Source: an uncultured virus (IMG/VR IMGVR_UViG_2061766007_000468)
Taxonomy: Duplodnaviria > Heunggongvirae > Uroviricota > Caudoviricetes
Reading direction: 5' to 3' (one strand)
Length of the DNA stretch: 64,000 nt
IMG/VR virus record: IMGVR_UViG_2061766007_000468
In this document: one piece after another, positions 3,072 to 56,320 of the stretch
Layout of the letters: each line of letters starts with the position of its first letter
How positions within the stretch are numbered: the first letter of the stretch is position 1
The notes under the pieces: generated by a model
Databases searched by the model: none
The model's input: only the letters and a program-made list of their open reading frames with translations
What the model was told of the DNA's origin: nothing
Program-made: the position numbers and the translations under genes

Positions 3072-3348
3072 NNNNNNNNNNTAAGGCGCGTCTTGCCGTT
3101 GGTATCGTCGTGTTCGTGCTGGGCATCCTCTACTGCGTGTGGATGTCCAAGCGCGTTCCGTTCGGCGGTGAGGTAGTGCTGTTTTTGTCGGTCATTATGT
3201 GCATTCCGCTTGGCATATTCATTCACGACTTGTACTCGCTGTACGACATGGATGTCGCGGCGAAATACGTCATGGAACACAAGNNNNNNNNNNATGATAG
3301 AGAGAAATGCCAGTTGACAAGACTGGCATTTTTGCTATATTTAGGTAC

Positions 3349-6620: not shown

Positions 6621-6921
6621 AAGTCTGGAGAATCAAGAAAGTCAAGCAGCCTAACGGCGATATCTGGTTCATTCCGCAGTACAGAAAGTGGTTGTTCTTC
6701 TGGCACAGCATAACGGCCATAGAACACATGCAGCACGTGTACCTTCCGTTCAGCGCAGAAGCATGCGAGTGCGAGTACCACTATGCTCTCACGGAAGCCT
6801 TCCATGGCTACACCTACTTCCTTACCGAGGCAGATGCCATGAGGACTGCGCAAATCTATGACAGAGGCAAGGTTGGTGTTGTCGAGTTACACGATAACGN
6901 NNNNNNNNNAAGGAACAAAAA

Positions 6922-7380
6922 ATGAGCAAGACACTTGAAGAACTGGAAGCTGACTACGACAAGGCGCGAGAAGCCTACTTCAATGCCAAGGAAGAAGCCG
7001 CCATGCAGAAGTATAGCGGCCTTGTCGGCAAATGGGTAGAAGTCAGCAACATTCCGTGGGATCTGGACGAAGAGAAGGACGAGCGAATGTATCAGAACTA
7101 CAAAAACGATGACAACCCGTCCTACATGCTTATCGAGAAGGTTGTACATGTGACGCCGATGTCGTCTGATGTGGACTGCGTACACATCACGCCGTCTCGC
7201 TGCGCCGAGGTTCTTAGTACGGATTCAAGCGGATTCTTGTGGAAGACATACAAGTGCCAAGAAAACTTCTACACCAACCGCTACAAGGTTGTCGACGCGA
7301 ATTACGTGGCCGAAGCGCTCAAGAAGGTCACGCTCAGGCAAATCGAAGCTACGAACAAGATCATCAAGGAAATCTTATAA
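6922..7380 (+). CDS. hypothetical protein
   Basis: AAGGA RBS, 152 aa ORF. Confidence 0.6.
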   Translation: MSKTLEELEADYDKAREAYFNAKEEAAMQKYSGLVGKWVEVSNIPWDLDEEKDERMYQNYKNDDNPSYMLIEKVVHVTPMSSDVDCVHITPSRCAEVLSTDSSGFLWKTYKCQENFYTNRYKVVDANYVAEALKKVTLRQIEATNKIIKEIL

Positions 7381-7491
7381 ACTTATGCTAAACCATAATG
7401 ATTAGTCGTGTTCTCATTAGGTTAAAGGAACCATTCTATAATGGCTCTTTTAGGGTTGAACACGACAATAAACCTTAATTGAGCCATTTCT

Positions 7492-8616
7492 ATGAATTTA
7501 ACTTATATATGTAAAGACTGCGGCGCAGATTTTCAAAGTACAAAAGGTCTGAGCTTTCATATTGCGACGAAACACAATCCTAAAGAATATTATGATAAAT
7601 TCTTAAAGAAGCCAACCGAAGGTATTTGCCGGGTATGCGGCAAGCCTACTCGATTTCGTAAGTTGTCCGCTGGATATGATAAATGTTGTTCAAAAGATTG
7701 CTTCCATAAATTAGATAGGAACTCATATAAGCATGCGGAGGATCCAATTCTAGTACAGTGGCAACGTGATATTGAAACTGTACAGCACGACTATCATCGT
7801 GCGCAGCTAGTACAATATCACTGTAAATTGTGTAATGCGGTAGTGATATCACAGATTCGTTATATTACTGGATTGGTGTGCATTAAGTGTAAGCGAAGAT
7901 GGGGCAACCTAAGAGCATTTGGTGACGAAAATCCTTTTCAGAATGTTGCAATTAAAGAACAAATATGCCGAACTAACGCGCGAAAATATGGTCATAAATA
8001 TTATTCGCAGACGGCTGCATTTGCTGAACAGTATGCGGCAACATGCTTGTCAAAATTTGGCGCATCACATTGGCTGTCGACATCGGCTCATCGCGAAAAG
8101 GTTCAAAAGACAAATTTACTACGTTATGGTGCTGCGTTTCAGACCCAGCGAGTGGACTTCCAACGAATATATACCGAAGCTTGCTTGGATAAATATGGGG
8201 TGCGTCACGCTTCACAAGTGCCGGATATTCGGCGCAAACAAGCTCATTGTAAATTCCATGCGCCGAATGGCAGAATCTATGACTCGTCGTGGGAGTACTT
8301 ATATGAACAATATCTCATTAGTTCTGGTGTACCATATATTTATCAATCTGACATAACATTCACATGGCTTGACGTCGACGGCGTTGAACATACGTATATT
8401 CCAGACTTCCACTTACTAGACGGCACTAACCGCCTCATAGAAATTAAAGGTGACCATTTCTTTAACGATCGCGGAGAATATTTTAATCCATACGATTTGA
8501 CGCCAAATGGATATAAAAATGCTAAATTAAAATATGACTGCATGATAAACGCTGGCGTACAAATATACACCTCTACAAACTTGATTCATCTTGGTATTCA
8601 CATAACGGGAGTATAA
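7492..8616 (+). CDS. Zn-finger plus PD-(D/E)XK endonuclease, probable free-standing homing endonuclease
   Basis: C2H2 finger (CKDC...HIATKH), CxxC pairs, KYG/RYG repeats, C-terminal YDSSWE...YIPDF...IEIKG; AT-richer than flanks. Confidence 0.75.
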   Translation: MNLTYICKDCGADFQSTKGLSFHIATKHNPKEYYDKFLKKPTEGICRVCGKPTRFRKLSAGYDKCCSKDCFHKLDRNSYKHAEDPILVQWQRDIETVQHDYHRAQLVQYHCKLCNAVVISQIRYITGLVCIKCKRRWGNLRAFGDENPFQNVAIKEQICRTNARKYGHKYYSQTAAFAEQYAATCLSKFGASHWLSTSAHREKVQKTNLLRYGAAFQTQRVDFQRIYTEACLDKYGVRHASQVPDIRRKQAHCKFHAPNGRIYDSSWEYLYEQYLISSGVPYIYQSDITFTWLDVDGVEHTYIPDFHLLDGTNRLIEIKGDHFFNDRGEYFNPYDLTPNGYKNAKLKYDCMINAGVQIYTSTNLIHLGIHITGV

Positions 8617-11586: not shown

Positions 11587-13162
11587 CTGTTAAATGAATT
11601 TTACACACTTTTTAACGATTTGCCACACTTTTGCACAAAACTTTTGTGTTTGTAATCGTATGAAAATAATGTATATTATAAACTGAAAGTAGCAAGCAAG
11701 TTCTTGGCCNNNNNNNNNNTAGTGGATTTTGAATGTCCGATGGATGCTGACGGCCAAAATAAGCGTTCATCGGGCATTTTCTTTTATTATGATACAGCAG
11801 TGTGGCAGAAAGATAGAGCTTCGGCTCAACCAAGAACAAGAACGGATATGCTTTTGTTCTTGTGCTGCCGCACGTCGAGCCTACAACTGGAAACTTGCTG
11901 CACAGAACGCCGCCTACGAACTAGCCAAGCAGAATACTCCCGAAGGACAGAAGGTCAAGTGCAAGCTCGGTTCCCCTATTGACTGGCATCGTGAATGGGT
12001 AGAATACAAACACCTCGAAGGCAACGAGTGGCTGATGGAACTGTCCAAGTGCTGCGGGCAAGAAGCATTAAGAGACCTCGGAACTGCGTGGCAAAAGTTC
12101 TTCAATGGAACTGGTAATCATCCGCAGTTCCACAAGTTCGGTGAACTGGATTCCTTCCGGCTTACTGGGTCGGTTTACATCGGTCGAGACTTCGTACAGC
12201 TTCCGTCACTTGGTAGAGTGAAGCTCAAGGAGAAAAACTACATAGTCATACCCGATGGAGTAGACAAGGTGCCTATCTCGATGGCTACCGTATCCAGACA
12301 AGGCTCACATTGGTATGTCTCGTTCGCCTACAAGACCGACATCATCCCGCTATACGAGAATGTCGATATTACCGATGACGAATACGATGTAGTAGGTGTT
12401 GACCTTGGAATAAAGGACTTGGCTATCACTTCTTATGGCGAGATCATCGCCAACCCGAAATCCTACCAGAAGCACTTGCAGCGTCTCAAACGATGGCAAC
12501 GAAAGCTTTCTCGTAGAAAGAAAGGTTCTAAAAACCGCAAGACGGCCATACGCAAAGTAGCCGACTTGTACAGAAAAATCACCAACATCCGTATCAACTC
12601 GGCTCACCAGTGTACCACTTCTTTAACGAGGAAGCTGGCTCCGAAGATGCTCGTAATCGAGTCCTTGAAACCGAAGAACATGAGCCGTAATCGCAAGTTA
12701 GCGTCCTCCGTTCTCGATGCCAACTTCAATCGTATTGCTACTCAGTTAGAATACAAGTGCAAGTGGCTCGGAATTAAGCTGGTTAAGGCTCCGCAGTTCT
12801 ATGCGTCGAGTCAATACTGCTCCGAGTGCGGATGTTATCAAAAGAAAGATTTAAAACTCACTGACCGTGAGTGGACTTGTCCCCAATGTGGTTGCCACCA
12901 TGATAGGGATGTGAATGCAGCCAGGAACTTGCGTTTCTATGGCTTGTGGTTGCTTGGCTATGCCAATCAGCAAACTGCGGCGAGTTACGCCGTGGCAGCT
13001 TGCCCTGTAGGTGAACGCCCACGGGAAGGTAGTGGTTCCGAACCACGCCCGAAAGACTTGAGGTTACAGTTCTTTGAAACACAAGAACAGTGCAAGTCGT
13101 TGAAGCAAGAAATCACTAGCTCAATTCAGCATTGTGCATAATTGTGCAAAATGATTTAACGG
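11587..13162 (+). mobile_element. non-autonomous TnpB-only IS (IS607-like ends)
   Basis: left CTGTTAAATGAATTTTACAC and right (rc) CCGTTAAATCATTTTGCAC are imperfect inverted ends; ends in ...AACGG; no transposase inside. Confidence 0.55.
11789..13141 (+). CDS. tnpB: RNA-guided endonuclease TnpB
   Basis: HTH_OrfB N-terminus, RuvC GVDLG / VIESL / DRDVNAARN, CSECG...CPQCG Zn ribbon. Confidence 0.93.
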   Translation: MIQQCGRKIELRLNQEQERICFCSCAAARRAYNWKLAAQNAAYELAKQNTPEGQKVKCKLGSPIDWHREWVEYKHLEGNEWLMELSKCCGQEALRDLGTAWQKFFNGTGNHPQFHKFGELDSFRLTGSVYIGRDFVQLPSLGRVKLKEKNYIVIPDGVDKVPISMATVSRQGSHWYVSFAYKTDIIPLYENVDITDDEYDVVGVDLGIKDLAITSYGEIIANPKSYQKHLQRLKRWQRKLSRRKKGSKNRKTAIRKVADLYRKITNIRINSAHQCTTSLTRKLAPKMLVIESLKPKNMSRNRKLASSVLDANFNRIATQLEYKCKWLGIKLVKAPQFYASSQYCSECGCYQKKDLKLTDREWTCPQCGCHHDRDVNAARNLRFYGLWLLGYANQQTAASYAVAACPVGERPREGSGSEPRPKDLRLQFFETQEQCKSLKQEITSSIQHCA

Positions 13163-16519: not shown

Positions 16520-16709
16520 GTCGCAGTTTCAAGATTTCCAAGTGGGAACCTACGACCAAGCTGTGCCCAGTCTGTGGTACTATCAACCATTTTACCCTCG
16601 CAGACCGCATATACAAATGCGACTGCGGATATACCATGGATAGGGATACCCATTCTGCCCGTGTAGTATTGATGATTGGCTCGTCTAAAAGAGCTGAGTG
16701 CTTGGAACA
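16520..16709 (+). pseudogene. tnpB: C-terminal TnpB fragment (Zn ribbon plus RuvC-III)
   Basis: reads ISKWEPTTKLCPVCG...YKCDCGYTMDRDTHSAR with no N-terminal part; runs into gap. Confidence 0.75.
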
Positions 16710-17172
16710 NNNNNNNNNNNNNNNNNNNNNNNNNNNNNNNNNNNNNNNNNNNNNNNNNNNNNNNNNNNNNNNNNNNNNNNNNNNNNNNNNNNNNNNNNNN
16801 NNNNNNNNNNNNNNNNNNNNNNNNNNNNNNNNNNNNNNNNNNNNNNNNNNNNNNNNNNNNNNNNNNNNNNNNNNNNNNNNNNNNNNNNNNNNNNNNNNNN
16901 NNNNNNNNNNNNNNNNNNNNNNNNNNNNNNNNNNNNNNNNNNNNNNNNNNNNNNNNNNNNNNNNNNNNNNNNNNNNNNNNNNNNNNNNNNNNNNNNNNNN
17001 NNNNNNNNNNNNNNNNNNNNNNNNNNNNNNNNNNNNNNNNNNNNNNNNNNNNNNNNNNNNNNNNNNNNNNNNNNNNNNNNNNNNNNNNNNNNNNNNNNNN
17101 NNNNNNNNNNNNNNNNNNNNNNNNNNNNNNNNNNNNNNNNNNNNNNNNNNNNNNNNNNNNNNNNNNNNNNNN

Positions 17173-18322
17173 CGGTTGACTTGCACCCTGCCTTCCAAGT
17201 TCTCAATGCACCATCAAGGGGTATCTTGAACGAGGAAGGATGTTTGCTCTTTTGAGCGATATTGACTGCACCATTCCAGTCGGCATCAAGGACGGTTCCG
17301 TTCTTGCAATAGAATCTTCGGTTCTTGCGTGTTCCGTCTTTCTTGCCAGTTGTGCAGTCGGTCTGACTTGTCATAAACGGAGAAACTGTTTCTACTCGTT
17401 TTCCATTGAGTAGTGCCTTGTATGACAAGATTTGCTTGAACTTATAGAAAGGAACTTGTCCGAGTCTACGGTTATGATTTTTCTTATTGAACCCTTCCTT
17501 GGACTTGGAAGTATTCTTCTTGATATTGCTTAAATCTTCAAGAATAATGAAACTATCATTAGTGCTGTCAATGATTGCATTGGCAACCTTGTAGCACATA
17601 TCCGTGGACTGGTTCATTTCCTTAACTGATAGCTTGCTCTTATGTCGTCTAGCAGACTTGGTTCCCTTCTTCTGCAAGCAACGCTTCAAGTAGCGGAGTT
17701 TGCGCCTACGAGCATTATATTCCTTGTCGTTGAACATGATACCATCCGAGGTAATCGCAAACCTACGCTCACCCAAGTCTACACCGATGCAAGTGTCGTT
17801 CTGTACTGGAATTTCTGGTGCATCAAACGGAATAGACAGGAAAAACTTGCCTTCTCGCTTAAAGATGAGTGGGTCTTGGGTCGGATATTTCTTGAACAAC
17901 TCAATTAGACGGGGAAACTTAACTATTTCAGTAACAGCCCGCCGATTAGATTTCTCCGAGCAAAGCGATATTCCATCAATGGTCATCTTGGAGTACAGAC
18001 GTTTGTCCAACCGCATAGACAAGTTCTTCTTGGTTGGAATCTTGTGCTCTATATGCCCATTGGAGTTGATTGAACGGAATGCCGATATGCACTCCTTATA
18101 TATCTTGATGACACCTTGGGACGGTATTGTCGGAAAGTCTTCCCTCAAGATATAGTATACTGCGTTGTGTACGGACTTCAAGTCCAAGTGTATCTTATTG
18201 GAATCAAGTATGTTGGCACACTCGTTATATGCAAGTCTGGCTACTTCAAGAAGACTAGACCAGTATTCTTGGTCTGCTTTGTCCTTGAAGCGGAGTTCTG
18301 CATTATAAGTTATCGTGCACAT
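17173..18322 (-). CDS. tnpB: TnpB (IS200/IS605 type), 3' end in gap
   Basis: RuvC GVDLG / ILEDL / DADWNGAVNI; degenerate Zn ribbon. Confidence 0.9.
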
Positions 18323-18430
18323 ACTTTCACCCGTGTTCAACTTAAAGTTTATAAAATTCTTGCGACAGATGCAACCGTTTTGTACTCATTTCTCTACAAG
18401 AAACCAAGAAAGTGTTCCCAAAGTGTTCTC

Positions 18431-22321: not shown

Positions 22322-23995
22322 TTACACGGCCTTCAAGTAGTCTAGCGACGGATTAACTTCCGCAATGCCGTTACGAGCCTTATCGGCGATGGTCTTCCTG
22401 TAGCCGATGCCGTATGCGCTCCAGATGTCCAAACGAGTCATCGTATCGACAATCTTTTCGTACACGCCCACGGATACACGAGCAGACACATCCTTTCCGA
22501 ACAAGGTCTTCTCCACGATCGGACGGAGAGCTTCGACTTCGCCAAAGAACTTAGCCATGCGGCACATGGCTACTGCCATATGGACACCCGTATTGGTCTG
22601 AGTGACGTCGGCCCACACCTTGCGGTTGATGTCTACCATCTTGACGAGCCAGGAAGGAGAACCGCTAGCGAGAGCACGATGTCCGCATTCGCTCATGGTT
22701 TCGAGTAACCAAGACGGAATACCCAATGAATTAGTGACTTTGCCGTTGACATAGTCGACTGAACGGTTAACCGTGTTTACCGGAGCAATGGAAAGCAACG
22801 CAGTCATTTCGTAGATCTCATTGTCCGTCAAGTACACACCATGCAAGCGCTCGTCGGCATCGTTGTTGCTGAGGATCATGTCGCCCATGCCGAGCAATCG
22901 TTCTGCGCCGCCATGTCCAAGAATGGTCACGGAGTCGGTAGCGGAACTTACCTTGAACGCGATGCGGCACGGCAAGTTTGCCTTGAGGTCGCCAGTGACC
23001 ACCTTGACGGACGGTCTCTGCGTGGCGAGAACCAGGTGAATTCCGACCGCACGGCTCTTCTGCGCAAGTCTCTGCACGATTTCGGTCAGCTCGTTTCCGG
23101 CTGTCATCATCAAGTCGGCAAACTCGTCGACTACACAGACAACGTAGCGCATCTTTTCCGCGCAATCCTTACCTACCGGCTGCGTGTTCACCCATTCGTT
23201 GTATGCGGTGATGTTGCGCTTGCCGTACTTGGTAAGAATAGCGTAGCGGCGATCCATTTCCTTGCAGAGCCAACGGAGACCATCAAGGGACTCGTTCGGC
23301 TCCACAAGAATTTTTCTGTTGATGCAGTTCGGAAGAGTGTGGTACTCGTTAAGTTCCACGCCCTTCGGATCCACGAGCATCAAGTCGAAGTCGTTCAAGG
23401 ACACGTTGCGGAGCAACGAACAGATGAGCGAGTTGATGCATACGGACTTTCCGGAACCCGTCTGTCCAGCAATCAAAAGATGCGGAGCCTTCGCCAAGTC
23501 GATTACACGAGCTTCGCCAGTGACCGTCACGCCAAGTTCGATAGGCAGAGCCATCTTGGAAGACTCGTCGGAATGGACGTTGCCGAGACGGACAACTTTG
23601 CGATCCTTGGCCGGAAGGTCAAGCGCAAGTACGCCCTTTTCGGGAACGGAAGTCACGGACACGCTCTTGGCGGTGAGCTGCATGGCGAGATCGTTGGACA
23701 AGTCGGAGACCGTCTTGATACGTACGCCACGCGGGAGCTTCAAGTTCACGCGGGTCACAACGGGGCCGCACTCGATGCTGTCCACCTGAACGCCGTTGAT
23801 ACCGAAGCTATTGAGCGCTTCGACGACACGTTCGGACAAGTCCTTGTCAGCGCTGCCTTCAAGATTGGTAGCGACATTGAAAAGGGAGCAGTTCTTTAGT
23901 AAGCTGAAGCCCTTGGTGTCGATGCCGTAGTAGGCGATAGCGTGGGTATCGGTCAAGTCCAATCCGTAGCAAACTTTGTAGCAACCTTTCTGCAT
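22322..23995 (-). CDS. ftsK: FtsK/SpoIIIE-family DNA translocase motor (no N-terminal TM region, no obvious gamma domain)
   Basis: GPVVTR, PHLLIAGQTGSGKS, VDPK.VEL, VVDEFADLM, GIHLVLATQRPS and GAERLLGMGDM motifs. Confidence 0.92.
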   Translation of the reverse strand: MQKGCYKVCYGLDLTDTHAIAYYGIDTKGFSLLKNCSLFNVATNLEGSADKDLSERVVEALNSFGINGVQVDSIECGPVVTRVNLKLPRGVRIKTVSDLSNDLAMQLTAKSVSVTSVPEKGVLALDLPAKDRKVVRLGNVHSDESSKMALPIELGVTVTGEARVIDLAKAPHLLIAGQTGSGKSVCINSLICSLLRNVSLNDFDLMLVDPKGVELNEYHTLPNCINRKILVEPNESLDGLRWLCKEMDRRYAILTKYGKRNITAYNEWVNTQPVGKDCAEKMRYVVCVVDEFADLMMTAGNELTEIVQRLAQKSRAVGIHLVLATQRPSVKVVTGDLKANLPCRIAFKVSSATDSVTILGHGGAERLLGMGDMILSNNDADERLHGVYLTDNEIYEMTALLSIAPVNTVNRSVDYVNGKVTNSLGIPSWLLETMSECGHRALASGSPSWLVKMVDINRKVWADVTQTNTGVHMAVAMCRMAKFFGEVEALRPIVEKTLFGKDVSARVSVGVYEKIVDTMTRLDIWSAYGIGYRKTIADKARNGIAEVNPSLDYLKAV

Positions 23996-24095
23996 GTTGA
24001 AACCTCCGCGTAATAATATAACTCTTAAAATGACTTCTGTCAAGTCCTCGCGTGTATTTTTGATACAACAACGAGGCAGTCCCGCCGTCGCGGGA

Positions 24096-25933: not shown

Positions 25934-26831
25934 TCATTTGCGCTTCGGAAATTCGCTGTCAAGGCCGTGTGCCCAAGATCCGTCGATGACGGAAAGCCCG
26001 GTCTTGACGCCGAGGTGAATCTCGTTGATTTTCTTCATGTCCGCCGGACGGCCTTGTACGTAATCGTCGGCCAGTTCCCTTATCTGGTCGGCGGCCTTGT
26101 AAAGCATCTGACGTACTGAGTGTTTAGTATATATCGCCATAGGATCTCCTTAGTTGATGACTTGCTTTCTCGATTGCCATTTCTCGTGGGCGGCAAGAAG
26201 CATGTCAACCTTGAACGCAAGCGGATAATACGCCTGTTCCTTCTTGAACTCCTCGCCGAGCTTCTTGAGCCGTGCCCATGCTTGAACTGAAAGGCAATAT
26301 AGGACTTGGTTCTCCGGAGTGAGTGAGGCCAGTATCTCACCAAACTCGTCGCTTTCATGGAAGCGTTCGATCTGTTCCTTTGTCAGTACTTCAGTGTCGC
26401 CGAGTCCGTTCTTTTCGCACCACTCGTACCACTTCTGGTCTGCGAGGTTCTGATATTCTCTAGCCATTTGTTCTCCTTGGTATAGTAATATAACTCTTTA
26501 TTGTATATTTGTCAAGAGGTTGCTATATTTTCTTTGCCGACAAGTTCTTGTCCGCCTTGACGGTCGCCATGATGACGTCGTACATTTCCTTGGTCAAGTA
26601 AAGGTCGTCCCGGTCGTCCACAATGACGGCGTAATGCCATGTCAAGTCAAAGTTCAGCTTGGGTACTTCCAGTACGGTGAACTTCTCACACTTGCGGAGA
26701 CGGTTCGTGACAAAGAGGCACGCGGCACCGATCTTCTTGGTATCCATGAAGTAGTTCACGTGGCCGTCACGAGCCAGCGATACCGACTTGATGTAGGGCA
26801 TGCCAGCGATGTTTGGTAATTTCTGATCCAT
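25934..26831 (-). CDS. three small hypothetical genes (25934-26140, 26150-26467, 26523-26831)
   Basis: each preceded by AAGGAG. Confidence 0.55.
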
Positions 26832-27006
26832 GAGGAATCTCCTTGATCGGGTTGGCCGTTGTATATGATGTCGAGGCAGTCCCGCCGTCGGCGGAACAGT
26901 CGGTTCGTCATGAACTACACATGACAATACCACTAGACTGAACTGTAGTTGGTATTTGTCATACGTAGGTCGGCAAGGCACATTTATTGTTCTCTACACA
27001 AGATAC

Positions 27007-28125
27007 TTGTCAATACACGTACCCAATAAGGGTACGACTTCTTGGGTAAGTGTTGTTCTGACGTCAATACACGCACCATTAAGGTGCGGACGCATTACAA
27101 TTCGGCACAGCGCAATAATCCTTCGTTCAAGAAACACCCTATAAGGGCCACTATCGAAGTTTTTGCCACAAGCCTGGTCGCAATTTCAATACACGTATCC
27201 ATAACGGATACGATATGTACCAACTAGCATGTGATATCCTTTGCGGTCATTTCAATACACGCACCATTTGGTGCGATGAGTCAACTGGGGCTCAAACGAA
27301 CAACGTTCTAATCTCAATACACGCACCCATAGGTGCGCCATCTGGAAATAATTTGACAGAGCGAAAGGTCTGATTTCAATACACGTATCCATTAAGGATA
27401 CGGAATGTTCCGACTAGCATCAGATAGGCTTTTCGGTTATTTCAATACACGGATCTTATATAGATCCGAAAAAACGATGCGACCGGTAATCGGCACCTTG
27501 TTTTCAATACACGCACCTATACAAGGTGCGACGACCTTCCCAACGAGGACTTGAAGTGTGTTGCGTTTCAATACACGCACCTATATAAGGTGCGACCCAT
27601 TCAGCATGTGCAATTGGTGCCAAGTAATGTTTCAATACACGCACCTATACAAGGTGCGACATTCTTCGCACGAGCTAACGTATCGGCGTCGCCGTGTCAA
27701 TACACGCACCTATACAAGGTGCGACCCGGTCTCCCAGATAAGCCTTGGAGCCGACTGTGTTTCAATACACGCACCTATACAAGGTGCGATACACGGCGGT
27801 CGAAAATNNNNNNNNNNTGCACCATCATCGTTTCAATACACGCACCTATACAAGGTGCGATAACAAGCTTGCATTGCGTTATTTACAAGTTCTTGTTTTC
27901 AATACACGCACCTATACAAGGTGCGATGAGGATGTAGAGGGCGGCGAGGGCGTTCATTCTAGTTTCAATACACGCACCTATACAAGGTGCGATAACAAGC
28001 TTGCATTGCGTTATTTACAAGTTCTTGTTTTCAATACACGCACCTATACAAGGTGCGATGGTCTTCTCCCAGTACCTCGTCGGCAGCCTGCTTGTTTCAA
28101 TACACGCACCTATACAAGGTGCGAT
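27007..28125 (-). CRISPR. type I-C-like CRISPR array, 18 repeats (10 canonical at 27501-28125, 8 variant at 27007-27470)
   Basis: 32-nt repeat RTCGCACCTTGTATAGGTGCGTGTATTGAAAC (- strand) with ~30-34 nt spacers; ATTGAAAC 3' handle; next to cas3; one gap inside. Confidence 0.97.
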
Positions 28126-28290
28126 AGGGGCTTCTGGAACCCCTATAATTACTGGGCTGCAGAGGACTATATCGCTAACCCAGTACCAACAAATACATTG
28201 TTGTTGAATAAATGCCTAAATATCAATCTACATGCCGTGTCTCGCACGACATAGGCTATCGCTAACCTACCACAATTTCTGGTGGAGCGA
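28126..28290 (-). promoter_or_regulatory. CRISPR leader
   Basis: non-coding segment between the cas3 stop and the best-conserved end of the array. Confidence 0.6.
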
Positions 28291-28294
28291 TAGG

Positions 28295-30748
28295 TTAGCG
28301 ATGACCTCTCGTTCGCTTCTTACTAGCCTTGAATTCTTCATGCAATCTAGCAATTCCGTATACAAGATCGTAACCACTATTCAAAATATAGGTATTTCTT
28401 CGGCCATCGACCTTGACTGCCAGCTTGGACTGCACCAGCCAGTCAAAAAACGTAGTCTTTTTACTTTCCTTATCAGCTGTTTGATCGGTATCATTACCAT
28501 AGTCACGAACGGCAAACCGTTGCATCTTACGGGTGTCTGATTTAGTGACCAACAGCTTGGCTCGTTCCGACACATCCATACGTTCAAAGTCAAGGTCAGT
28601 CAACTTGGACGCTGCCATGATTTTGTCAGCAATAGCCTTACTTTCATCATCAAGCGGTACTAGCAATTCTTGCTGGACGTCGTCAATGAGCTTGGCTCGG
28701 CATGCGATCGTTTCAAAGTTGATGTTCATATTGTTAATGATAATCTTGTCACCAACTTGTTTACCGAATTCTTCACGTTGAACATTATTACGGTCAAACG
28801 CAACAGTCTCGCCGCAATCTTTCAAGTATAGCTCGACGTAGCAACTCCAGTATTCCGTGCGCCATTTTTCGTCTTTTGCCACTTGTGATAAGTCATAGTG
28901 AAACCGCTTCAATACCGTCTTCATCGCATCCATCTGTTTGATCGGAAGTCCAGGAACAACTTCACCACATTGTGGAAACAATATACAATCACCGACGCCA
29001 TACTCTCCGCTACGATTGCAACGACCAGCAACTTGAATAAGACTCGTCCAACCACACATTTCACGCATGACCACGGGAAAACTGATATCAACGCCAGTCT
29101 GTACGATTGACGTACAGATAAGACGCACGTCCTTACCATCGTTCAGTCGCTGTTTGACCTCGGCAAGAACCTTCTCTCTATGAGAAGGAATCATGGACGC
29201 ACTTAAGTGATATACGTTCTGTATGCCGTTACTTTTCATAGTTTCAGCGAGTTCAAACGCACTACCACGTGTATTCACTACGACCATACATTGCTTATAC
29301 GTAGCCGCTTTTTTGGATACGGATTGCCATCCATTCAAGTTATGATTATAGGAATAGCGGACACGCTCAACCGGAGAACTGACCAGACCCTTTGGTACGA
29401 TAGCCTTGGGAATACGAGAAAGTATCTTCTTGGTTTCACCAGTAGATAATGTTGTACGCAATAGATCCATCACAGGCAACGTAGCAGACGCCAATACCAC
29501 GGAAGAGTTGTAAACACGTGAATGGGTCAATGCCTCTACGGCATGGCACGTATGCCACATTTTGTCCATTGGAATCTCGTGGAACTCGTCAAATAGAATG
29601 ACCGAATTCGTTAAGTTGTGTAGCTTACGACAACGGCTGTTACGATTGGAATACATTGAGTCCATGATTTGTTCAGAACTACTTACGACAATGGGTGCGT
29701 CCCAGTTATCGCAAGCCATCAAATCAGCCATTGACATCGCATCCGTATCCATATTGATATGGTGGACACATACGTTGTTCGAACCAAAGATCATCTTAAA
29801 GATGATTGCGGTCTGTTCAATCACGGCACCAAACGGTGCAACGTAAACTACACGATTCATCTTGTTGTTAATAGCATGCATCAATGCGAACATGAGCATG
29901 GCAAGTGTCTTGCCGCCACCCACATCTGCTTCTAGCATGAACACGCCCTTGTTGCTAGGAGCCATGCGTTTTGCACAAGTCATGATTTCTGTACGCCATT
30001 GGTTAATGACCGTATCGTTACGGCATACCTTGTTGCAGAAATTGACCAAGCGAGTGCGCAATTCCTTCAGCGAAGAATGCTGATTCTCTCGATCCGTTGT
30101 TGCAGACGGCCTATAGTAGGCTTCGGTACACAGACAGTCTGCATCAATCAGGCACGAAAAAAACAGCCTAGTCATCATCGGCCACCATCCGGTATAATAG
30201 CTATCTCCGTTAGCTTTCAGGCCGAAATGGTCTGCGTCTATCTCATTGCAGAACTCGGATAGATTATTGGTCATCTGGTAGACTTCTGGATAGATAGCGT
30301 AGTCCGGGTTTGTCTTACAGTTGTTATGGTATGTGTCGTCACGTTTCATGAACGTCTCGTCGCGACTCAACCCATCCTTCTCGGTAAGTTCACTAGGTTT
30401 CTTAGAATAGTTGATCAAGCCGCCATGGTGACATGCGATTGCCATGGCCATAGCTTGACCAAACGGAGTATTTCCGAATCTCTTGAGCATAGCGAGAGCA
30501 CCAGCCATCATGTGGTCATACTTGATAGGCTTGCCGTCACTAAGAATGACGCCGACGCGCTTACCGAAGATGTCACTAGCCTTGCCAATGTCGTGGTAGT
30601 TGCCAAGCACCTTGCATGGTTGTGCACAACCGAATTCGGCACCGAAATCTTCGCACAAATCACCGACCTTATCGGAGTGTTCGCTCAGGCTTTCGATGTC
30701 AATCAGCTTGTCACCTTCGTACAAAGTATGTCCAATCATCTGTTTCAT
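28295..30748 (-). CDS. cas3: Cas3 HD nuclease-helicase
   Basis: LSEH, HDIGK, CHHGGL and LIDAD HD motifs; GGGKT, FDEFH, SAT, GVDISF and QVAGRCNR SF2 motifs. Confidence 0.95.
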   Translation of the reverse strand: MKQMIGHTLYEGDKLIDIESLSEHSDKVGDLCEDFGAEFGCAQPCKVLGNYHDIGKASDIFGKRVGVILSDGKPIKYDHMMAGALAMLKRFGNTPFGQAMAMAIACHHGGLINYSKKPSELTEKDGLSRDETFMKRDDTYHNNCKTNPDYAIYPEVYQMTNNLSEFCNEIDADHFGLKANGDSYYTGWWPMMTRLFFSCLIDADCLCTEAYYRPSATTDRENQHSSLKELRTRLVNFCNKVCRNDTVINQWRTEIMTCAKRMAPSNKGVFMLEADVGGGKTLAMLMFALMHAINNKMNRVVYVAPFGAVIEQTAIIFKMIFGSNNVCVHHINMDTDAMSMADLMACDNWDAPIVVSSSEQIMDSMYSNRNSRCRKLHNLTNSVILFDEFHEIPMDKMWHTCHAVEALTHSRVYNSSVVLASATLPVMDLLRTTLSTGETKKILSRIPKAIVPKGLVSSPVERVRYSYNHNLNGWQSVSKKAATYKQCMVVVNTRGSAFELAETMKSNGIQNVYHLSASMIPSHREKVLAEVKQRLNDGKDVRLICTSIVQTGVDISFPVVMREMCGWTSLIQVAGRCNRSGEYGVGDCILFPQCGEVVPGLPIKQMDAMKTVLKRFHYDLSQVAKDEKWRTEYWSCYVELYLKDCGETVAFDRNNVQREEFGKQVGDKIIINNMNINFETIACRAKLIDDVQQELLVPLDDESKAIADKIMAASKLTDLDFERMDVSERAKLLVTKSDTRKMQRFAVRDYGNDTDQTADKESKKTTFFDWLVQSKLAVKVDGRRNTYILNSGYDLVYGIARLHEEFKASKKRTRGHR

Positions 30749-30813
30749 AGTGTACCCAATTGATAAGGAAAATGCCCACTTGTTACCAAGTGGGCAAGTT
30801 CGTGTAATTATGA

Positions 30814-31782
30814 CTAGTATTCGATTACTTTCACGCCCGTGAACTTGGATACGAGCTTCTGGTCAACAGACACGTCGAAGTCGGCAAAGGACTTAGGACG
30901 GTCAACCTTCTGCTTGATCTTAATAGCTTCACGGATATCCTTCATCGGCATGTTGCCACGCATGTTTTCGTGTTCAAAGATGAACATCTTTTCATACTGC
31001 AAGTTGCGGACGCTGGAGTTGGTGACATCCCAGATTTCCTTGAGAAGCGTGATGAGATTGTCGTAGTCTTTACGAGTGAATCCGTTCTGTGCGGCCACGA
31101 TGGAATTTACGTGAATCACGATGGGGAACAGTGCATATTCCACACCAGACTGGCGACCCATGGAACGATCCTTAGATTCCGCTTCGGACTTGTTTGCGAC
31201 TTGGCACGTCGTTATGGTGCGGTCATTGATGTAGAGTTCGTTGACAGAGATAGCGTGTTCAATCTGAACAGCTCCAGTCAATCCGCCAACCGTACCAAGT
31301 ACTTGTCCGAACGCACGGACATCGAAGAACTTGTCGCAGAGCTTGTTAGCAACGTAGGCACGGTCTTCACGAGTGACCGGAGTAGCCTTCTTCTTGTCTT
31401 CGGAAGAATCCTTTGCGCTGAGAGCTTTGTCAACGGACGGACAACACTTGAGATCAATGGATTCCTTGATCTGTTCAGTACGAACCGTACCAGGTCGAAC
31501 GAAGATCAAATTGCTGTCCTTGTTGTCAGCGAACATGTCCACACCTTCGGTCGTGCGGTAGAATTCGATCGTGTTACGGATCTTGCGCTTGATGGAATTG
31601 GAAGTCATGAGCGCATGGGAATCGTCGGTAAGACGAGGACGACCTTCGTCATCGGGGTCACCGTTCGGGTTCGATCCGATCGCCGATACGAAAAGCACGA
31701 TATCGGCTTTTTTAGCGGGTTCCTTAGCAGAAGATGCCGTCGGAATGATGGGGGAAGTAACGTTCTTAGTAGGTTTTGACAT
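30814..31782 (-). CDS. cas7: Cas7 (Csd2, type I-C backbone)
   Basis: NPNGDPDDEGRPR, IKRKIRN, FFDVRAFG and MGR signatures. Confidence 0.93.
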   Translation of the reverse strand: MSKPTKNVTSPIIPTASSAKEPAKKADIVLFVSAIGSNPNGDPDDEGRPRLTDDSHALMTSNSIKRKIRNTIEFYRTTEGVDMFADNKDSNLIFVRPGTVRTEQIKESIDLKCCPSVDKALSAKDSSEDKKKATPVTREDRAYVANKLCDKFFDVRAFGQVLGTVGGLTGAVQIEHAISVNELYINDRTITTCQVANKSEAESKDRSMGRQSGVEYALFPIVIHVNSIVAAQNGFTRKDYDNLITLLKEIWDVTNSSVRNLQYEKMFIFEHENMRGNMPMKDIREAIKIKQKVDRPKSFADFDVSVDQKLVSKFTGVKVIEY

Positions 31783-31784
31783 AA

Positions 31785-32174
31785 TTAGTCCTCATTGTTT
31801 TGATTGTTGGTTTTGTTGGATTTATAAAAATCGCCGTTTTGTTGGATACAGCCTACGCTAAGTTCAGCTTGCTCATCCGTAGACATACGTTCGTTATTAT
31901 GCGGCTGCATCACCGATAATATTTCGTCCATCAACTGGAGGCCAAAAATAGCGGTGCCACGAGTATTATTGTTCTTGATTAACTGGTTGCAATACATGCG
32001 AAGACGACCCAGTAATTCTTGTCGACAGTCATTCGGACGATTCCGAGCACGAGCGTCCAGTCGGCCAGAAATAGGTGACGAAATGTTAGAATTGCACTTT
32101 CTCTGTAAGTAGTCTCCTAATGCAAGAAGACGACCCATATTGTATGCAAAATCCGTTCGTGTTTTGTCAAGCAT
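31785..32174 (-). CDS. cas11: Cas11 small subunit from an internal in-frame start in cas8c (129 aa)
   Basis: AAGGAG RBS 10 nt before in-frame ATG (MLDKTRTDFAYNMGRL), matching the known I-C internal Cas11 start position. Confidence 0.7.
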   Translation of the reverse strand: MLDKTRTDFAYNMGRLLALGDYLQRKCNSNISSPISGRLDARARNRPNDCRQELLGRLRMYCNQLIKNNNTRGTAIFGLQLMDEILSVMQPHNNERMSTDEQAELSVGCIQQNGDFYKSNKTNNQNNED

Positions 32175-33569
32175 ATCGGAAAACTCCTTTTTGTTGTTGC
32201 GCCTTGCGCTGTTGTTGTAGCATGCCTTGACCAAGGCGTACTGGTTATATGTCATCTGCTTTCCAGAGAACGAAATACGGTTGATAACCCTATCGAGCAG
32301 ACCGTTCTTGATATCCTTACCGAAAAGGATTGTGTGCATTACAGACTCATAGTCACGCGCATTCACCTTTCCGTCTTTCGGCAGCGCCGAGCGCAACATG
32401 CTCATAATGCTGTGAGGCAGTCCCGCCGTAATCGTATCATTATACCAAGTGTCGATGTTCTTGCACATATCCGCCACATTGATAGTGAACTCTCCAGTAC
32501 ATGACCATCTTGCTTTGACACAATGGATCCTATAACACGTAACCGTTCCCTTTGCACTAGCGGTGTAGTACTTACCCTTACGGACAGCCTGGTACTTCTT
32601 GTAGATGATATCAGCTGGGTTCACCTTGGGAAGTTCTACCTTACCGCCCTCGGTACATTCGTCGGCGGGGTCTTCATCCATCACACCCAGTTCCACCAAA
32701 TCTTCCGGCTTGTAGATATCCATGAGCATTCCGCTGACTGGAGACTGTAACTCCTCGGACACATTGTCATATACGATGATATACGAGTCGTTGGGAGAAT
32801 TGGGGATACGGATATAGTTTTTCTTGTTGTTGATAAGCGACTGCAAGTTGCGAAGAATCGTGGAATATGTCTGCGCGGACATCGGAGATCCATCAAGATT
32901 CTCAAAATTGTAGTTACGGATCGACGGAATGGCGCTCGTATTAGCCGACGCCATCACCATGCCAGTAGGCGATGAGCCTACTATACGGCTGAGCTTTTCA
33001 TACTTAAGGTTGATAGCCTTTCCGACTTCACCAGTAACGGAACACACGACATCTTCGGTTTCGACTCCGCTGAATTGATCTGCATACTTCTCAGCAAGAA
33101 CGGTGTACCCTTCGAACGTAGACACTATACGAATTGCACCCATCCCTTCGTACAAAATCTTGTTGAGATCCACCGTGTCCATGGTCTTTAACAACATATC
33201 ATATGGATTGTCAGACAAGAACTCAATCAGCTTTTTGACAGCTGGATCGGATGCACAGTCACTTTCGGACAGAAACGTTACATAGCTGTCATGCTTAACT
33301 TTAGACTTCGGTGTTTTCGTGACAACGATTTCCTTCTTGACTTCGCTCACGTTAATGCCAAACGTAGCTTCCACATCGTCAATGAACGGTCGAGGTTCAT
33401 AGCCAGCTGTACGAGCAGCACCCATCAAGCTAACTTCGCTAGTTTCTTGACTACGTTCAAGCCATATGCCATCTGGGGAAACTACCAGGTCTACCTTGGA
33501 AGGCCAGCTGACTCGGTCATAGCGGATCTTAGGCGCTCCCATATTGAGAAGATTGTTGAATAACGGCAT
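31785..33569 (-). CDS. cas8c: Cas8c (Csd1) large subunit, divergent
   Basis: between cas5 and cas7; RTAG..PRPFID, VCSVTGE and C-terminal AYNMGRLLA. Confidence 0.85.
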   Translation of the reverse strand: MPLFNNLLNMGAPKIRYDRVSWPSKVDLVVSPDGIWLERSQETSEVSLMGAARTAGYEPRPFIDDVEATFGINVSEVKKEIVVTKTPKSKVKHDSYVTFLSESDCASDPAVKKLIEFLSDNPYDMLLKTMDTVDLNKILYEGMGAIRIVSTFEGYTVLAEKYADQFSGVETEDVVCSVTGEVGKAINLKYEKLSRIVGSSPTGMVMASANTSAIPSIRNYNFENLDGSPMSAQTYSTILRNLQSLINNKKNYIRIPNSPNDSYIIVYDNVSEELQSPVSGMLMDIYKPEDLVELGVMDEDPADECTEGGKVELPKVNPADIIYKKYQAVRKGKYYTASAKGTVTCYRIHCVKARWSCTGEFTINVADMCKNIDTWYNDTITAGLPHSIMSMLRSALPKDGKVNARDYESVMHTILFGKDIKNGLLDRVINRISFSGKQMTYNQYALVKACYNNSARRNNKKEFSDMLDKTRTDFAYNMGRLLALGDYLQRKCNSNISSPISGRLDARARNRPNDCRQELLGRLRMYCNQLIKNNNTRGTAIFGLQLMDEILSVMQPHNNERMSTDEQAELSVGCIQQNGDFYKSNKTNNQNNED

Positions 33570-34285
33570 TACTTACCCCACTCGATGTTGATAAATTCGT
33601 CTTGTGTGTACACCTTGTTTCCGACAACGATGCGGCATTTCGAAAAATCGATCGTACCATTCTTGATTTCCACCTTGGTGAACGCAGTCGTGCTGGTGAA
33701 ATCGTCGATGTGCGGAATCTTGTACAGAGAGTTGTACACCATGTTGATGGATTCGCAAGGTTGGAACTCTGAAGGAGCTGGGCCGAAATCGGCCACGCAT
33801 TCGCCCATACCGAAACACGGAAGATATTCGGACTGTCCATTCTTTATACGTCGAGTAAGAATGTCGATATGCTTCGTAGCATTCTCCCCAGACTTTAAAG
33901 TACGGCCTTCTCGGCGATAGAAATCCTTGTCATAAAACATAGTAAACTCGATAACGTACTTGACATCCTTCAAGAACGTAATCATGCGCTGCAAGGCATC
34001 CTCACATTCAATACAAGCGACCTCACCAGTAGTCATACTGACATTGCCCAAGTCGTTACGTTCGTTCACGTACATAGGGCAATACTTCAATGGATTTAAG
34101 ATGTGGATCTTGTCAATGCGATACCTGATGCAAGGATGTCCGTAAATACGGCTGATCATGTATTCGGTGGCGCCAGCGGTAGGAGCCGGGTAGGAGGTTC
34201 GTTCCACTTTGGATATCGGATCCGTGAAGCAAGCGAACGAGCCGCTTACCATCAAGGAAAATTTTTTTATTGGTTTGAAATTCAT
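33569..34285 (-). CDS. cas5: Cas5 (Cas5c/Cas5d, crRNA processing)
   Basis: VSGSFACFTDPISKVERTSYPAPT, LKDVKYVI and PCFGMGEC motifs. Confidence 0.93.
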   Translation of the reverse strand: MNFKPIKKFSLMVSGSFACFTDPISKVERTSYPAPTAGATEYMISRIYGHPCIRYRIDKIHILNPLKYCPMYVNERNDLGNVSMTTGEVACIECEDALQRMITFLKDVKYVIEFTMFYDKDFYRREGRTLKSGENATKHIDILTRRIKNGQSEYLPCFGMGECVADFGPAPSEFQPCESINMVYNSLYKIPHIDDFTSTTAFTKVEIKNGTIDFSKCRIVVGNKVYTQDEFINIEWGK

Positions 34286-34310
34286 TGGCAGTACCTCATC
34301 GGTTTGTTTC

Positions 34311-34339
34311 TAATATAGCATTAATTTTTCGGTGGTCAA
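34311..34339 (-). promoter_or_regulatory. sigma70-like promoter of the cas operon
   Basis: TTGACC...TGcTATATT just upstream of the cas5 RBS; similar TTGACA-N17/18-TATATT sites at ~21745, ~24015, ~26487, ~38897, ~49975. Confidence 0.6.
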
Positions 34340-34404
34340 GTGTTTTTCTGGAAGTTTTATCCTTTGTAAGCAAAAAATAATAAATTTACCTATTCGACAT
34401 GTAT

Positions 34405-35730
34405 CTAGGCGTATTTCTTCCTATCGAAAATACGGTTTCCTAGTTCCACTACCTTCCGGCACCATGCGGCCTGTGGGTCATATGAGTTACCTTGGGCGTC
34501 CTTGGCCAGTTCTCCGGTCAGCAGACACGTCCTCACCTTGTTGTAGTCGCTATGTCCGTACGACGGAGAACAGAAGTAAAGATGGGTCATTCCGAACATA
34601 GGAACCTTCGTGTAGTTGGTGACCGGTTCCTCGTACAGTCTGCGGAGCAAACTCAACGCCGTCGCACGTTCCCTTCTGGTCAGTTCCGCGATACCCGGTC
34701 TAGGACGTTCGCCGTAGAACTCAAGGTGAACTCGGTCGAACTGGTAATTGCGCATGTAGGAAAGATACTTCGTGTCGCACATGGCGCCCACAGAACGGGC
34801 CATGCGAACAGACGTGCAGAACGGCTCAAAATACTTGCGCATCTCGGTGTTCCAGTCGTTCGATTTTCCGTGAACGCCAGTCAACGTGTAATATAGCTTG
34901 AACAGCGCGGTACGGTCTTTCGCCTTGTATGCGTCCCTCAATGCTGCGTAAATTGCTTTCTTGGTCATCTTCATAGTCGGTAGTCTCCTTATCAAGTATG
35001 CCATTGTCATGACGGAACGGAGCAGTCCCGCCGTCGGCGGAACAGTCTCTTTACACAGTGTGGATCTCCTTGGCGGTTGGCGGTACGCACACGACATTGC
35101 AAAATTTCTTGTGTACGAGCATAATCTTTCGGTGCATCGGATCCGGTTTCTTGCCATCGAACTTGGCAAGAGTGTTCTTGAGTACGAGCGCGGCGGCGAA
35201 CACGGGTTCGCGGTGGCTTACCGCATAGTGCAAGTACTGTCCGCAATACTTGATGGTGAGTACGCCGACAAAGCGGTGAGTCTTCTTGACATCGTGCCAT
35301 CCGCCCACGCATCCAGACGAGTGCGTCTTTCCCCATCCTTCGTCAAATTCTTTTTTTGTCATGACCCGGAAATCGAACACCACTCGGCTGTGCTTGACTG
35401 CGACGTGGCAAGCGTACTTGGTATGTTCGAACATATCGGAAATTTTTTTCTGGGCTTCGGTCATAATGGCTCCTTTTAGTATTCTCGTGACTCGTTCAGG
35501 TAGAGGTGTACATCGTCAACGGTGAGTCCGTTTGTCTCAAGGATGTTGAGCAACTGGATTATACCGCCGAACGACAGCTTTCCTTCACCTTTGATGCATA
35601 CCATGTCGCAGCAAGTCTTTACCGACAAACTTCCAGTAAACGCTTGTTTGCAATCATCCAGTACTTTGTCTTCGGTAGACTTGAGTATCGTGGACTTCAC
35701 AAAAGATATTGTTGTCTGGTAATACGACAT
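34405..35730 (-). CDS. three hypothetical genes (34405-34974, 35051-35464, 35476-35730)
   Basis: RBS-led ORFs, consistent strand and codon usage. Confidence 0.55.
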
Positions 35731-43516: not shown

Positions 43517-44038
43517 TTACTTGCAGTCCTTCACCAGACGGACGCAGTGACCCACGCGACCGTCCACCGATCCCTCGCCGAAACCGTAGTGGTGGGCCTC
43601 AAGCGCCCAGTAGATGGGTTCGTGTACCTTCTCTCCGTACTCGTTCACGTAGTCGTCGAAGTCCGTGCTCCAGTAGCCCACCGAAATCCCTTGATATATG
43701 ACCCTACCACAACCAGGCGAATAGTAGCCAAGCGGCCTTCCGCAGAAGCCAACCTCGTCGGCTCCGTTCTTGCCCTCGTATGCCTTCTCCCATCCGGAAA
43801 CGGACTTGACCTTCCTACCAGCCACGGACTTTCCTCCGCAGAAGTCAGTCAGCTTCTTCCAGTCGGCTACCGTGGGGAGCCTCCAGCCGTCGCCAACCGA
43901 TTCGGCANNNNNNNNNNNNNNNNNNNNNNNGCCGTTGTCCTCGTATATGCCCTTCGACGGATCGGCGGTCATGGACAGCTCGTGGTTCATCCATAGCTGG
44001 TCGCCTATCCGTACGACATCCTTCTCCTCAATTCCCAT
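43517..44038 (-). CDS. FISUMP (Fibrobacter succinogenes major paralogous domain) protein
   Basis: VRIGDQLWM, GWRLPT..DW..L, KS.SGW, NG.D..GF, GYWST and VRLVKD signature. Confidence 0.85.
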   Translation of the reverse strand: MGIEEKDVVRIGDQLWMNHELSMTADPSKGIYEDNGXXXXXXXXAESVGDGWRLPTVADWKKLTDFCGGKSVAGRKVKSVSGWEKAYEGKNGADEVGFCGRPLGYYSPGCGRVIYQGISVGYWSTDFDDYVNEYGEKVHEPIYWALEAHHYGFGEGSVDGRVGHCVRLVKDCK

Positions 44039-45209
44039 ATAAATCTCCTTGGTTCGTACACACCCAATGAACCAGCGAGGCAGTCCCGCCACGCCGTCAC
44101 CATTCTAGCAGAGAGTGTCGAAGTCGAAACCCAGCTTTCCGCAAAAGTATTCCTTCCAGTTCTCCTCGCTTGCACCGCCCTCAGGCAACTGCTCTATGTA
44201 CCCTACCATTATCTCCTTCACCTTGGAATCTTCCAGCTTCTCCTTGGTTCTCGAACACCAGAAGTAGTCGTCCACGGAGTCCATGAAGAAGCTGGTGCCG
44301 CCGTGGGTAGGCTCCGTCCATACGTTAGCGCCGAACTTCGCCGTCGGACGGTCGTAGAAGTAGCCCTGCGCCTCCTCGCAAAGGGGAACCTCGACCTCGC
44401 TGAACTTGATCTGCGTACTGGCAATTCCGTCCGGAAGCTTGCCCTCGACCACCTTGTCCACCGTGACCACCGTGCCGATGTACCTCTTGCATGCGATGTC
44501 AACGAGTCCAAGTAGCTCCTCGTACTTCCTCAAGCCCTCGCAGCACACAACCATAAGGTACTGTCCGCAAGAGTATTCAGTGTGTGTGACTCCGTTGAGG
44601 ATACGGCTTAGGCCGATCCTCTCGTCGTTCGTGAGGTTCTTCACTTCCAAGAGGACGCTCATGTTCCCCTTGTCTTGCTTAATCTTCTTTATCATGTAAA
44701 TCTCCTTGGTTCGTACATGACCTATAACACAGAGAGGCAGTCCCGCAGTCCCACGGACAGTCCCTCGGTTCCCACAGTGCGCCCTATGGGNNNNNNNNNN
44801 GGGTATCAACCAGTTCACGAGTTCGTCGGTGGTAGCCAAAGGAACACCTACTTGAAAGTTTTCTTATCGAGGTGCGGTTTTCCGTCTTGGCCGATGACGG
44901 GCCAGATGACTTGTTTNNNNNNNNNNGTGGATAGATTGTTGATAAGTTGTTTTCAAGATCATGGGTTCACATCATGCCCATCTGTGCATTCTGTTGGGAC
45001 GCCGTTCGTTGGGTCGGGAACTGGTACACGGAGTTGTGGAGTCCCCGTCCGTCACTTAAACTCAAAGTCACTTTTTGTAGCGAAATGTTTACAATTAAGT
45101 AGGGAAACATCGGTCGGCTTGGGGGTCTCGCGTGTGGGCCTCGTTTCGCCCTTCGGCGGCTGTGTGCGGACTGCGCGGACGGGTTCGGATAAGGTAATAA
45201 GTAAGGCGC

Positions 45210-56200: not shown

Positions 56201-56320
56201 TAGTAGTCTGAACCGGAGTCGAACCAGTAACTACGGATCGGGTTCCCAGACAGATGTTGCTAGCTAGTCTATCTGGCTGATTTTTCCGTCCGTCGCATTT
56301 ACCAATTAAGCTATCAGACC
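56201..56320 (-). ncRNA. tRNA-like RNA with a 51-nt structured insert replacing the anticodon loop (copy 2)
   Basis: acceptor GGTCTGA/TCAGACT, D loop AATTGGTAA, anticodon stem ACGGA/TCCGT, T arm ACTGG-TTCGACT-CCGGT, 3' ACTA. Confidence 0.75.

Follow-up and report, generated by a model that had tools for sequence, protein, structure and literature searches.

A phage-borne type I-C CRISPR array carries two look-alike spacers that match one resolvase site of Fibrobacter chromosomal islands

The cas genes, the array and their carrier

The window, by which we mean the whole stretch of 64,000 nucleotides that was analysed, contains a CRISPR array located downstream of cas5c, cas8c, cas7 and cas3, all on the minus strand (Table 1). 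All four Cas proteins score above the Pfam cut-off, and Cas5c, Cas3' and Cas3'' also above those of NCBIfam, whereas the NCBIfam scores of Cas7 (150.7 for a cut-off of 182.25) and Cas8c (100.9 for 218.65) fall below and mark these two proteins as divergent. Cas3 retains the HD, Walker A, DExH and motif VI residues. No cas1, cas2, cas4 or cas6 gene was found among the 39 and 61 window ORFs scanned, so that no adaptation module was recognised among them. By its gene content, with cas5c, cas8c, cas7 and cas3 together and no cas6, the system is assigned to type I-C, and crRNA processing as well as Cas3 cleavage are predicted from the motifs. The repeat is 32 nt long, forms a 5' hairpin of 7 bp and keeps a conserved 3' handle, likewise as in a type I-C system.

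Table 1. Features of the CRISPR-Cas locus, with the basis of each assignment (spacer matches are given as identical positions over spacer length)
Feature	Position	Strand	Basis or best match
Type I-C CRISPR array	27007..28125	-	17 repeats, and a degenerate one near 27125-48; the repeats of the trailer end (27007-27470) are diverged
Spacer to the resolvase of A and B, 9 codons upstream, again after a Phe codon	27149..27182	-	25/34 to L120, PAM TTT; the X3 allele has a natural Arg codon
Variant repeat, 3' hairpin of crRNA A (derived stem)	27183..27214	-	Repeat and stem comparison
Spacer A, directed to the resolvase site that follows the invariant Phe; GY.ML subfamily	27215..27248	-	27/34 to L121, PAM TTT, positions 1-11 perfectly matched
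Spacer to the C-terminal helix-turn-helix of the resolvase, opposite strand	27278..27310	-	27/33 to L132, PAM TTG; 24/33 in two more orthologs
Variant repeat, 3' hairpin of crRNA B (derived stem as in crRNA A)	27373..27404	-	Repeat and stem comparison
Spacer B, paralogous to A; matching the AYLS subfamily in its 5' half, A-like in its 3' half	27405..27438	-	26/34 to L122 (PAM TTT); 25/34 to L120 (PAM TTC)
Spacer to an activator of the Mor family, next to a phage tail-completion gene (Mu-like prophage)	27533..27564	-	26/32 in 5 genomes; PAM TTT in 4, CTT in 1
Spacer to an ArdC-like gene adjoining the resolvase, weak alone	27597..27628	-	24/32 with PAM TTT in two genomes, 23/32 with PAM TTC in another; controls 21-22
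Spacer with a target contig in run X1, codon phase kept	27661..27693	-	TTC PAM; loose ends and depth in X1
Spacer to a gene in a type I R-M/defence island, seed mismatches, no PAM	27928..27961	-	31/34 in 7 genomes, PAM AAA
Short leader between cas3 and the first repeat	28126..28294	-	Inferred from orientation (repeat orientation by comparison with the host repeat)
cas3, HD and helicase motifs present	28295..30748	-	Profile matches, motif check
cas7 (Csd2)	30814..31782	-	Profile matches
cas8c (Csd1)	31785..33569	-	Profile matches
cas5c (Cas5d, pre-crRNA processing)	33569..34285	-	Profile match; aligns with solved Cas5d proteins

The array is transcribed from the minus strand, and spacers A and B lie at its old (trailer) end. 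As stated in an earlier note on this DNA, both are 34 nt long, which is a common spacer length in the array, agree at 26 of 34 positions and read in frame 0 of the minus strand as DRKGYHMLVGT and NRKAYLMLVGT, respectively. They differ at guide positions 1, 6, 11, 12, 17, 18, 27 and 30; their likeness is not due to chance, since the runner-up among the non-identical spacer pairs of the array reaches only 17/30. Nor is the pair a scaffolding artefact, since a single contig of metagenome run X1, a possible source run, covers 26700-27526 with zero differences. In run X3, from a different study and 13 years later by its record, one contig carries A unchanged and another, the only one of its kind and of depth 2, a third allele in which, in the guide frame, Lys is replaced by Arg (positions 7-8), a Leu codon is swapped for another Leu codon (position 22) and position 34 is changed. 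On the latter contig (window 27171-27277), the variant of A has a variant of spacer 27340 as its next neighbour and spacer 27278 is skipped; at this depth of 2, the order of the trailer units thus varies between phage populations. Of two other runs compared, X9 gave no contig at this place and X7 covered only the flank. Elsewhere in the array, spacers 27862-27895 and 27994-28027 are identical and near a scaffold gap (27808-17), and X1 contigs depart from the window around 27815-29, so that this part of the array may be mis-assembled.

The IMG/VR record G001 (348 kb) is 82-93% identical to the window in the main flanking blocks and is devoid of the whole cas-plus-array cassette. In place of the cassette (window 26468-35060), G001 has about 1.6 kb of small ORFs (L109, about 6390-7990). 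Members of related Cas7 clusters are found on contigs of up to 486 kb, and on sequence grounds the carrier is a huge rumen phage. The sequencing runs that contain the stretch are gut metagenomes, several of them bovine, and the host is most likely Fibrobacter, as indicated by four lines: the phage encodes a FISUMP protein, one cluster member bears the name Fibrobacter sp., one spacer matches a Fibrobacter genome at 30/30, and the host has an I-C repeat that is similar. Cas7 proteins of these hosts, present in 9 of 151 genomes, share no more than 37% identity with phage Cas7, whereas 12 close Cas7 clusters are 43-93% identical to it, so that the system was not captured recently from the hosts compared. 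Within IMG/VR no related array was found, the nearest Cas7 being 32% identical and the 46 matches to the repeat pattern all being single.

Several other features of the phage were observed. The 10-nt motif GCAGTCCCGC (plus strand) occurs in 25 copies between 18526 and 63460 of the window, on one strand only and mostly in intergenic regions (e.g. 24076, 26876 and 35022), with copies near both ends of the accessory CRISPR cassette, and is probably a phage promoter or regulatory site. Two ORFs belong to the TnpB family (11729-13141 and 16685-18340, the second spanning an N-run), and a 117-nt tRNA-like Rfam match at 56204-56320 receives no call from ARAGORN. Other ORFs encode the FISUMP (Fib_succ_major) protein (43517-44092), an FtsK-like translocase (22322-24043) and an MzaB-like ATPase (2164-3084).

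A serine resolvase site in Fibrobacteraceae islands

A search with the codon pattern, two mismatches being allowed, retrieved 3 of 151 Fibrobacteraceae genomes (control 1), all at one and the same site of a serine resolvase, directly after a Phe codon that constitutes a TTT or TTC PAM. The proposal that A and B are codon-level homologs of one protein site, preceded by a TTC-like I-C PAM and fitting different orthologs, was thereby borne out, with A falling to the GY.ML and B to the AYLS subfamily. The resolvase family is present in 11 of the 151 genomes, and the comparisons below concern 10 orthologs, one member without the site being left out; 3 of the 10 were first found with the pattern made from the spacers.

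The PAMs of the array as a whole are of the 5' TTC type, with TTC at the X1 target of spacer 27661, TTT or TTC at the matches of A, B, 27149 and 27597, TTG or TTA at those of 27278 and AAA at that of 27928; in another I-C system, TTT is described as a working alternative PAM (PMC5602111, as far as its accessible text goes). Six of the seven assigned guides place third codon positions on guide positions 6, 12, 18, 24 and 30 (prior 0.35, P 0.0095), a count in which A and B are taken as one and 27661 was read by hand. According to the available part of a study on I-F3 transposons (bioRxiv 10.1101/2020.07.02.184150), every sixth guide position is flipped out and unpaired, and the guides of these elements use such a wobble-aligned register; we infer that unpaired sixth positions may hold for the phage I-C complex too. 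With this numbering, the first 14 positions of B differ from L122 only at the unpaired position 6, and the best natural matches of A and B leave 5 mismatches at paired positions. Matches of equal quality with a TTY PAM are expected by chance 0.001 times for A and 0.013 times for B. No perfect target was found for either spacer, and 30 loci of other resolvases gave no match above the control.

Further searches brought no closer target. The exact codon patterns had no match in viral contigs or in GTDB contigs (for GTDB, with the strict Lys version), a single-protein scan detected no close relative of the resolvase in viral contigs, and the phylum-wide pattern yielded no closer allele in 296 genomes. 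INPHARED and PLSDB contained no target, the plasmid resolvases among the best matches listed being less than 50% identical. A metagenome match (L050, 24/34) was rejected as unrelated GC-rich DNA with no PAM, about one chance match being expected, and two long repeat-rich proteins that also came up were discarded as unrelated artefacts. In run X1 there is no target contig for A or B among the matches listed and depth is flat, an absence that fits exclusion, old targets or incomplete display alike.

Examination of selected ORFs in the flanks of the ten resolvase genes revealed an adjoining ArdC in 8/10, SpoVG in 5/10, TnsB/TnsC/TniQ in 2/10 and tyrosine integrases in 2/10. Type I, III or ISP restriction-modification lies near the resolvase in 5/10 islands and a lone methylase in 1, within the flanks scanned. 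Since several of these resolvase modules sit amid housekeeping genes, they represent integrated chromosomal islands. The type I R-M loci of two islands (L134, 13526-19876; L136, 93-5839) contain two hsdM genes and several hsdS pieces around a tyrosine recombinase, likely a specificity-switching cassette.

The resolvase-ArdC module is matched by further guides, so that four spacers in all are directed to the resolvase and one to ardC; matches of 24-25 nt are weak alone and were counted only through place, PAM and peptide. Spacer 27928 departs from the phase and PAM rule: its positions 2-4 are mismatched and its PAM is AAA, although a matching contig occurs in X1 too. For spacer 27340 no target was found, and for 27091, 27471, 27726, 27862 and 28060 no convincing one, which together makes six spacers of at least 30 nt. 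The first 20 bases of spacer 28060-28093 match a sigma-54 gene of one Fibrobacter genome (L152, 27/34 overall, PAM GTC), possibly by chance. Autoregulatory guides of the CreA/crlRNA type partially match the promoter of their own cas locus; in the window the best self-matches (21/34 and 20/34) are at background level, and the array thus shows no guide of this type.

Descent of spacers A and B

The explanations to be weighed answer two separate questions, origin and function. As to origin, we favour, from the comparison of repeats and alleles, a common descent of A and B by duplication of a repeat-spacer unit followed by retuning. The trailer repeats diverge yet keep their hairpin, with 74 of 74 stem cells paired and 10 of them compensatory; none of 500 shuffles reaches this level, in a control that is inflated by the relatedness of the repeats. 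The repeats following A and B are the only trailer-repeat pair with an identical derived stem (roughly 1 in 21 pairs), although they are not the same variant repeat, as had been claimed, in the strict sense: the 7-bp derived stem is common to both, but they differ at 4 of 32 positions. Together with this stem, the mosaic make-up of B favours the duplicated unit proposed earlier. The 5' half of B is AYL-type (15/18 to L131) and its 3' half A-type (14/16 to A versus 11-12/16 to B's own subfamily), and AYL followed by Met occurs in 0 of the proteins examined, AYL alone occurring in 30. Furthermore, A and B are closer to one another (26/34) than natural cross-subfamily pairs (21/34), and 5 of 45 natural pairs reach at least 25.

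A rather unlikely alternative is that a host Cas1-2-4 machinery acquired A and B independently from two unsampled island alleles, both being kept by selection as guides to the best broad-range site. TTC or TTT PAMs are available at 214 positions in any of the ten orthologs (34-63 per gene), and only 3 of them have the PAM in all ten, the A/B site being the most conserved of the three and ranking 1 of 214. The Phe residue itself is kept in 186 of 186 motif-bearing homologs among the 191 read, in a search that allowed F or Y. As the 5' end is set by the PAM and the 3' end by the customary spacer length, the argument that identical boundaries would be unlikely from independent acquisition is a weak one and finds no support; with a PAM in 10/10 orthologs and the highest conservation, selection for breadth would pick this site repeatedly. 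The availability of host I-C systems with a similar repeat and the undersampling of islands by one genome per species also speak for separate acquisition. The common derived stem behind A and B speaks against it, as do their closeness compared with natural pairs, the T common to both at position 34, which is G in 9 of 10 orthologs, and the absence of both peptides from the proteins read.

The retuning of the copies is best seen at the paired positions. Among A, B and the X3 allele, all 8 paired-position differences between alleles are natural in the ten orthologs (P 2.6e-4 under random change), or 7 of 8 when the three pattern-found orthologs are omitted. Nevertheless, the peptides of the three spacers are absent from all 191 close homologs and 150 further matches (341 proteins); the His codon of A differs from the natural Gln codon only at the unpaired position 18. 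This absence leaves the earlier suggestion of spacer updating by recombination of a duplicated spacer with target DNA without support, and we consider it quite unlikely. Changes do fall in adjacent pairs (positions 7-8, 11-12 and 17-18) that match natural alleles, and B resembles an AYLS-type 5' tract set on an A-type 3' half, as recombination would produce; in two of these pairs, however, one base is an unpaired position, free to drift, some residues are foreign to the natural family (His in A, Gln and Cys in spacer 27149) and suggest point mutation, and no donor allele was found. The other half of that suggestion, strong selection, fares better in the form of point mutation plus selection, which fits the absence of the peptides at least as well as recombination.

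The synonymous third-position differences noticed earlier are real but prove little alone, since 4 of the 8 differences between A and B (6, 12, 18 and 30) fall on Cascade's unpaired positions. These four, along with the trailer position and the lack of a perfect target, could also be expected of old spacers for one target that are decaying, drift at unpaired positions mimicking synonymous change. A similar reading, in which the unpaired positions drift over a single target, was rejected in view of the X3 allele and the paired-position comparison. Decay is very improbable and already largely refuted: the paired-position changes track natural alleles, the stems are fully compensated and A is unchanged in a second study.

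Taken further, duplication and retuning could describe a guide repertoire that evolves without acquisition, an idea we hold only tentatively. Units would be duplicated and locked by compensatory divergence of the repeats; one base at a time, or through conversion by target DNA, they would then be tuned to broad guides intermediate between natural alleles, aimed at an unescapable Phe-codon PAM in the backbone of mobile defence islands. Such an affinity maturation of guides might disable varied defence cargo via one shared gene.

Putative function and comparison with known systems

We regard it as fairly probable that a huge phage of Fibrobacter maintains its type I-C guides over the long term to act against a family of mobile chromosomal islands, in a broad counter-island interference. 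From the observed sequence relations, PAMs, register and gene context, the proposed course leads to a presumed production of crRNAs, binding, Cas3 action and benefit to the phage. One repeat-spacer unit would have been duplicated, and mutation and selection would have retuned its copies, chiefly in the PAM-proximal half, so as to cover different island subfamilies; the in-frame register would set wobble bases on the unpaired sixth positions of Cascade and widen the range of each guide, and the diverged repeats would guard the guides against recombinational loss. At infection, Cas5c would process the crRNAs, Cascade would bind the resolvase gene and Cas3 would degrade or disable the island, thus removing an antagonist, be it defence cargo or a hitch-hiking element. 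Against this course, 5 paired mismatches in the best matches are perhaps too many for cleavage, the third allele comes from one depth-2 contig, R-M is found in the flanks of only half of the islands scanned, destruction of a gene leaves the enzyme already made, and guide 27928 breaks the phase and PAM rule.

The guides could instead protect the phage from a transposon or a satellite-like hitch-hiker rather than from restriction enzymes, the resolvase module being needed for spread of the element at infection; this is a serious possibility, though we give it less than an even chance. The Tns and TniQ proteins and the tyrosine integrases beside some modules agree with it, as do ArdC and SpoVG, which are mobile-element genes, the half of the islands with no R-M nearby and the precedent of the phage ICP1 and its PLE islands, so far as the accessible sources describe it. 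The scan of viral contigs, with its lack of a close resolvase relative, argues against it. It is unlikely, in our opinion, that the mismatched guides do no more than bind the resolvase gene and repress it, or prime the uptake of new spacers, with no cleavage. Perfect seeds followed by 5 distal paired mismatches are compatible with such a role, which is supported by the priming by mismatched and TTT-PAM targets reported for another I-C system in the accessible text of PMC5602111; on the other hand, the Cas3 motifs are present, the sites are within the coding sequence rather than at a promoter, and the mismatches may reflect undersampling. Counter-island interference would point to an uncharacterised island family (resolvase-ArdC-SpoVG) that the phage finds worth attacking. 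The three natural alleles of one guide make two ideas testable, namely duplication and refinement of spacers after their acquisition and the setting of guide breadth by the codon register.

The atypical repeat-spacer units of I-F3 Tn7-CRISPR transposons have been proposed as a long-term memory and a protection against spacer loss (bioRxiv 10.1101/2020.07.02.184150). As far as the available part of that study describes them, the guides examined here share with these units a location at the trailer end, diverged but functional repeats (a function that is predicted in our case), mismatches to conserved genes and wobble on every sixth position. They differ in that the I-F3 guides direct transposition, without Cas3, into core genes, whereas the locus described here has cas3, is carried by a phage and is directed at accessory islands, of which some are Tn7-like. 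The phage locus is not a CRISPR-associated transposon (CAST), since no tns gene lies beside the cas genes and no Tns match was obtained among the window ORFs scanned, so that linked tnsABC/tniQ are missing. CRISPR loci of huge phages, which usually lack the adaptation module (Cas1, Cas2 and Cas4), resemble this one by a compact array, a host-like repeat and some spacers directed at the chromosome of the host or at other phages (PMC7162821), but the I-C variant presented in the accessible text of that work has another helicase in place of Cas3, which is present here. The same text makes no mention of paralogous guides or of a focus on one island gene, and neither a CRISPR system in a Fibrobacter phage nor a set of paralogous guides adjusted to island-gene subfamilies is described in the literature searched (few subscription journals, no supplements).

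The nearest functional parallel, within what the accessible parts of PMC9040626 and PMC11656645 describe, is Vibrio phage ICP1's CRISPR-Cas, of type I-F, directed against PLE islands. Both are phage-borne class 1 systems with a nuclease, both have spacers that concentrate on an accessory host island (here a module present in 10 of 151 genomes) and both loci are found in only some relatives, G001 being here the one without the cassette. Unlike ICP1, whose type I-F system has its own Cas1, the Fibrobacter phage has a type I-C system with no cas1, cas2 or cas4 among the ORFs scanned, and its guides, known from sequence alone, are imperfect, paralogous and set in diverged repeats. Unlike PLE, a satellite that is induced by the phage and blocks it, the island attacked here has a resolvase-ArdC module and varied cargo and is, by its gene content, at most a candidate satellite. 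A 2024 review names ICP1, in the text available, as the only CRISPR-bearing phage with tested counter-defence (PMC11656645); the present locus would be the second such case, on prediction, and its named targets belong to a rumen bacterium of key importance for fibre degradation.
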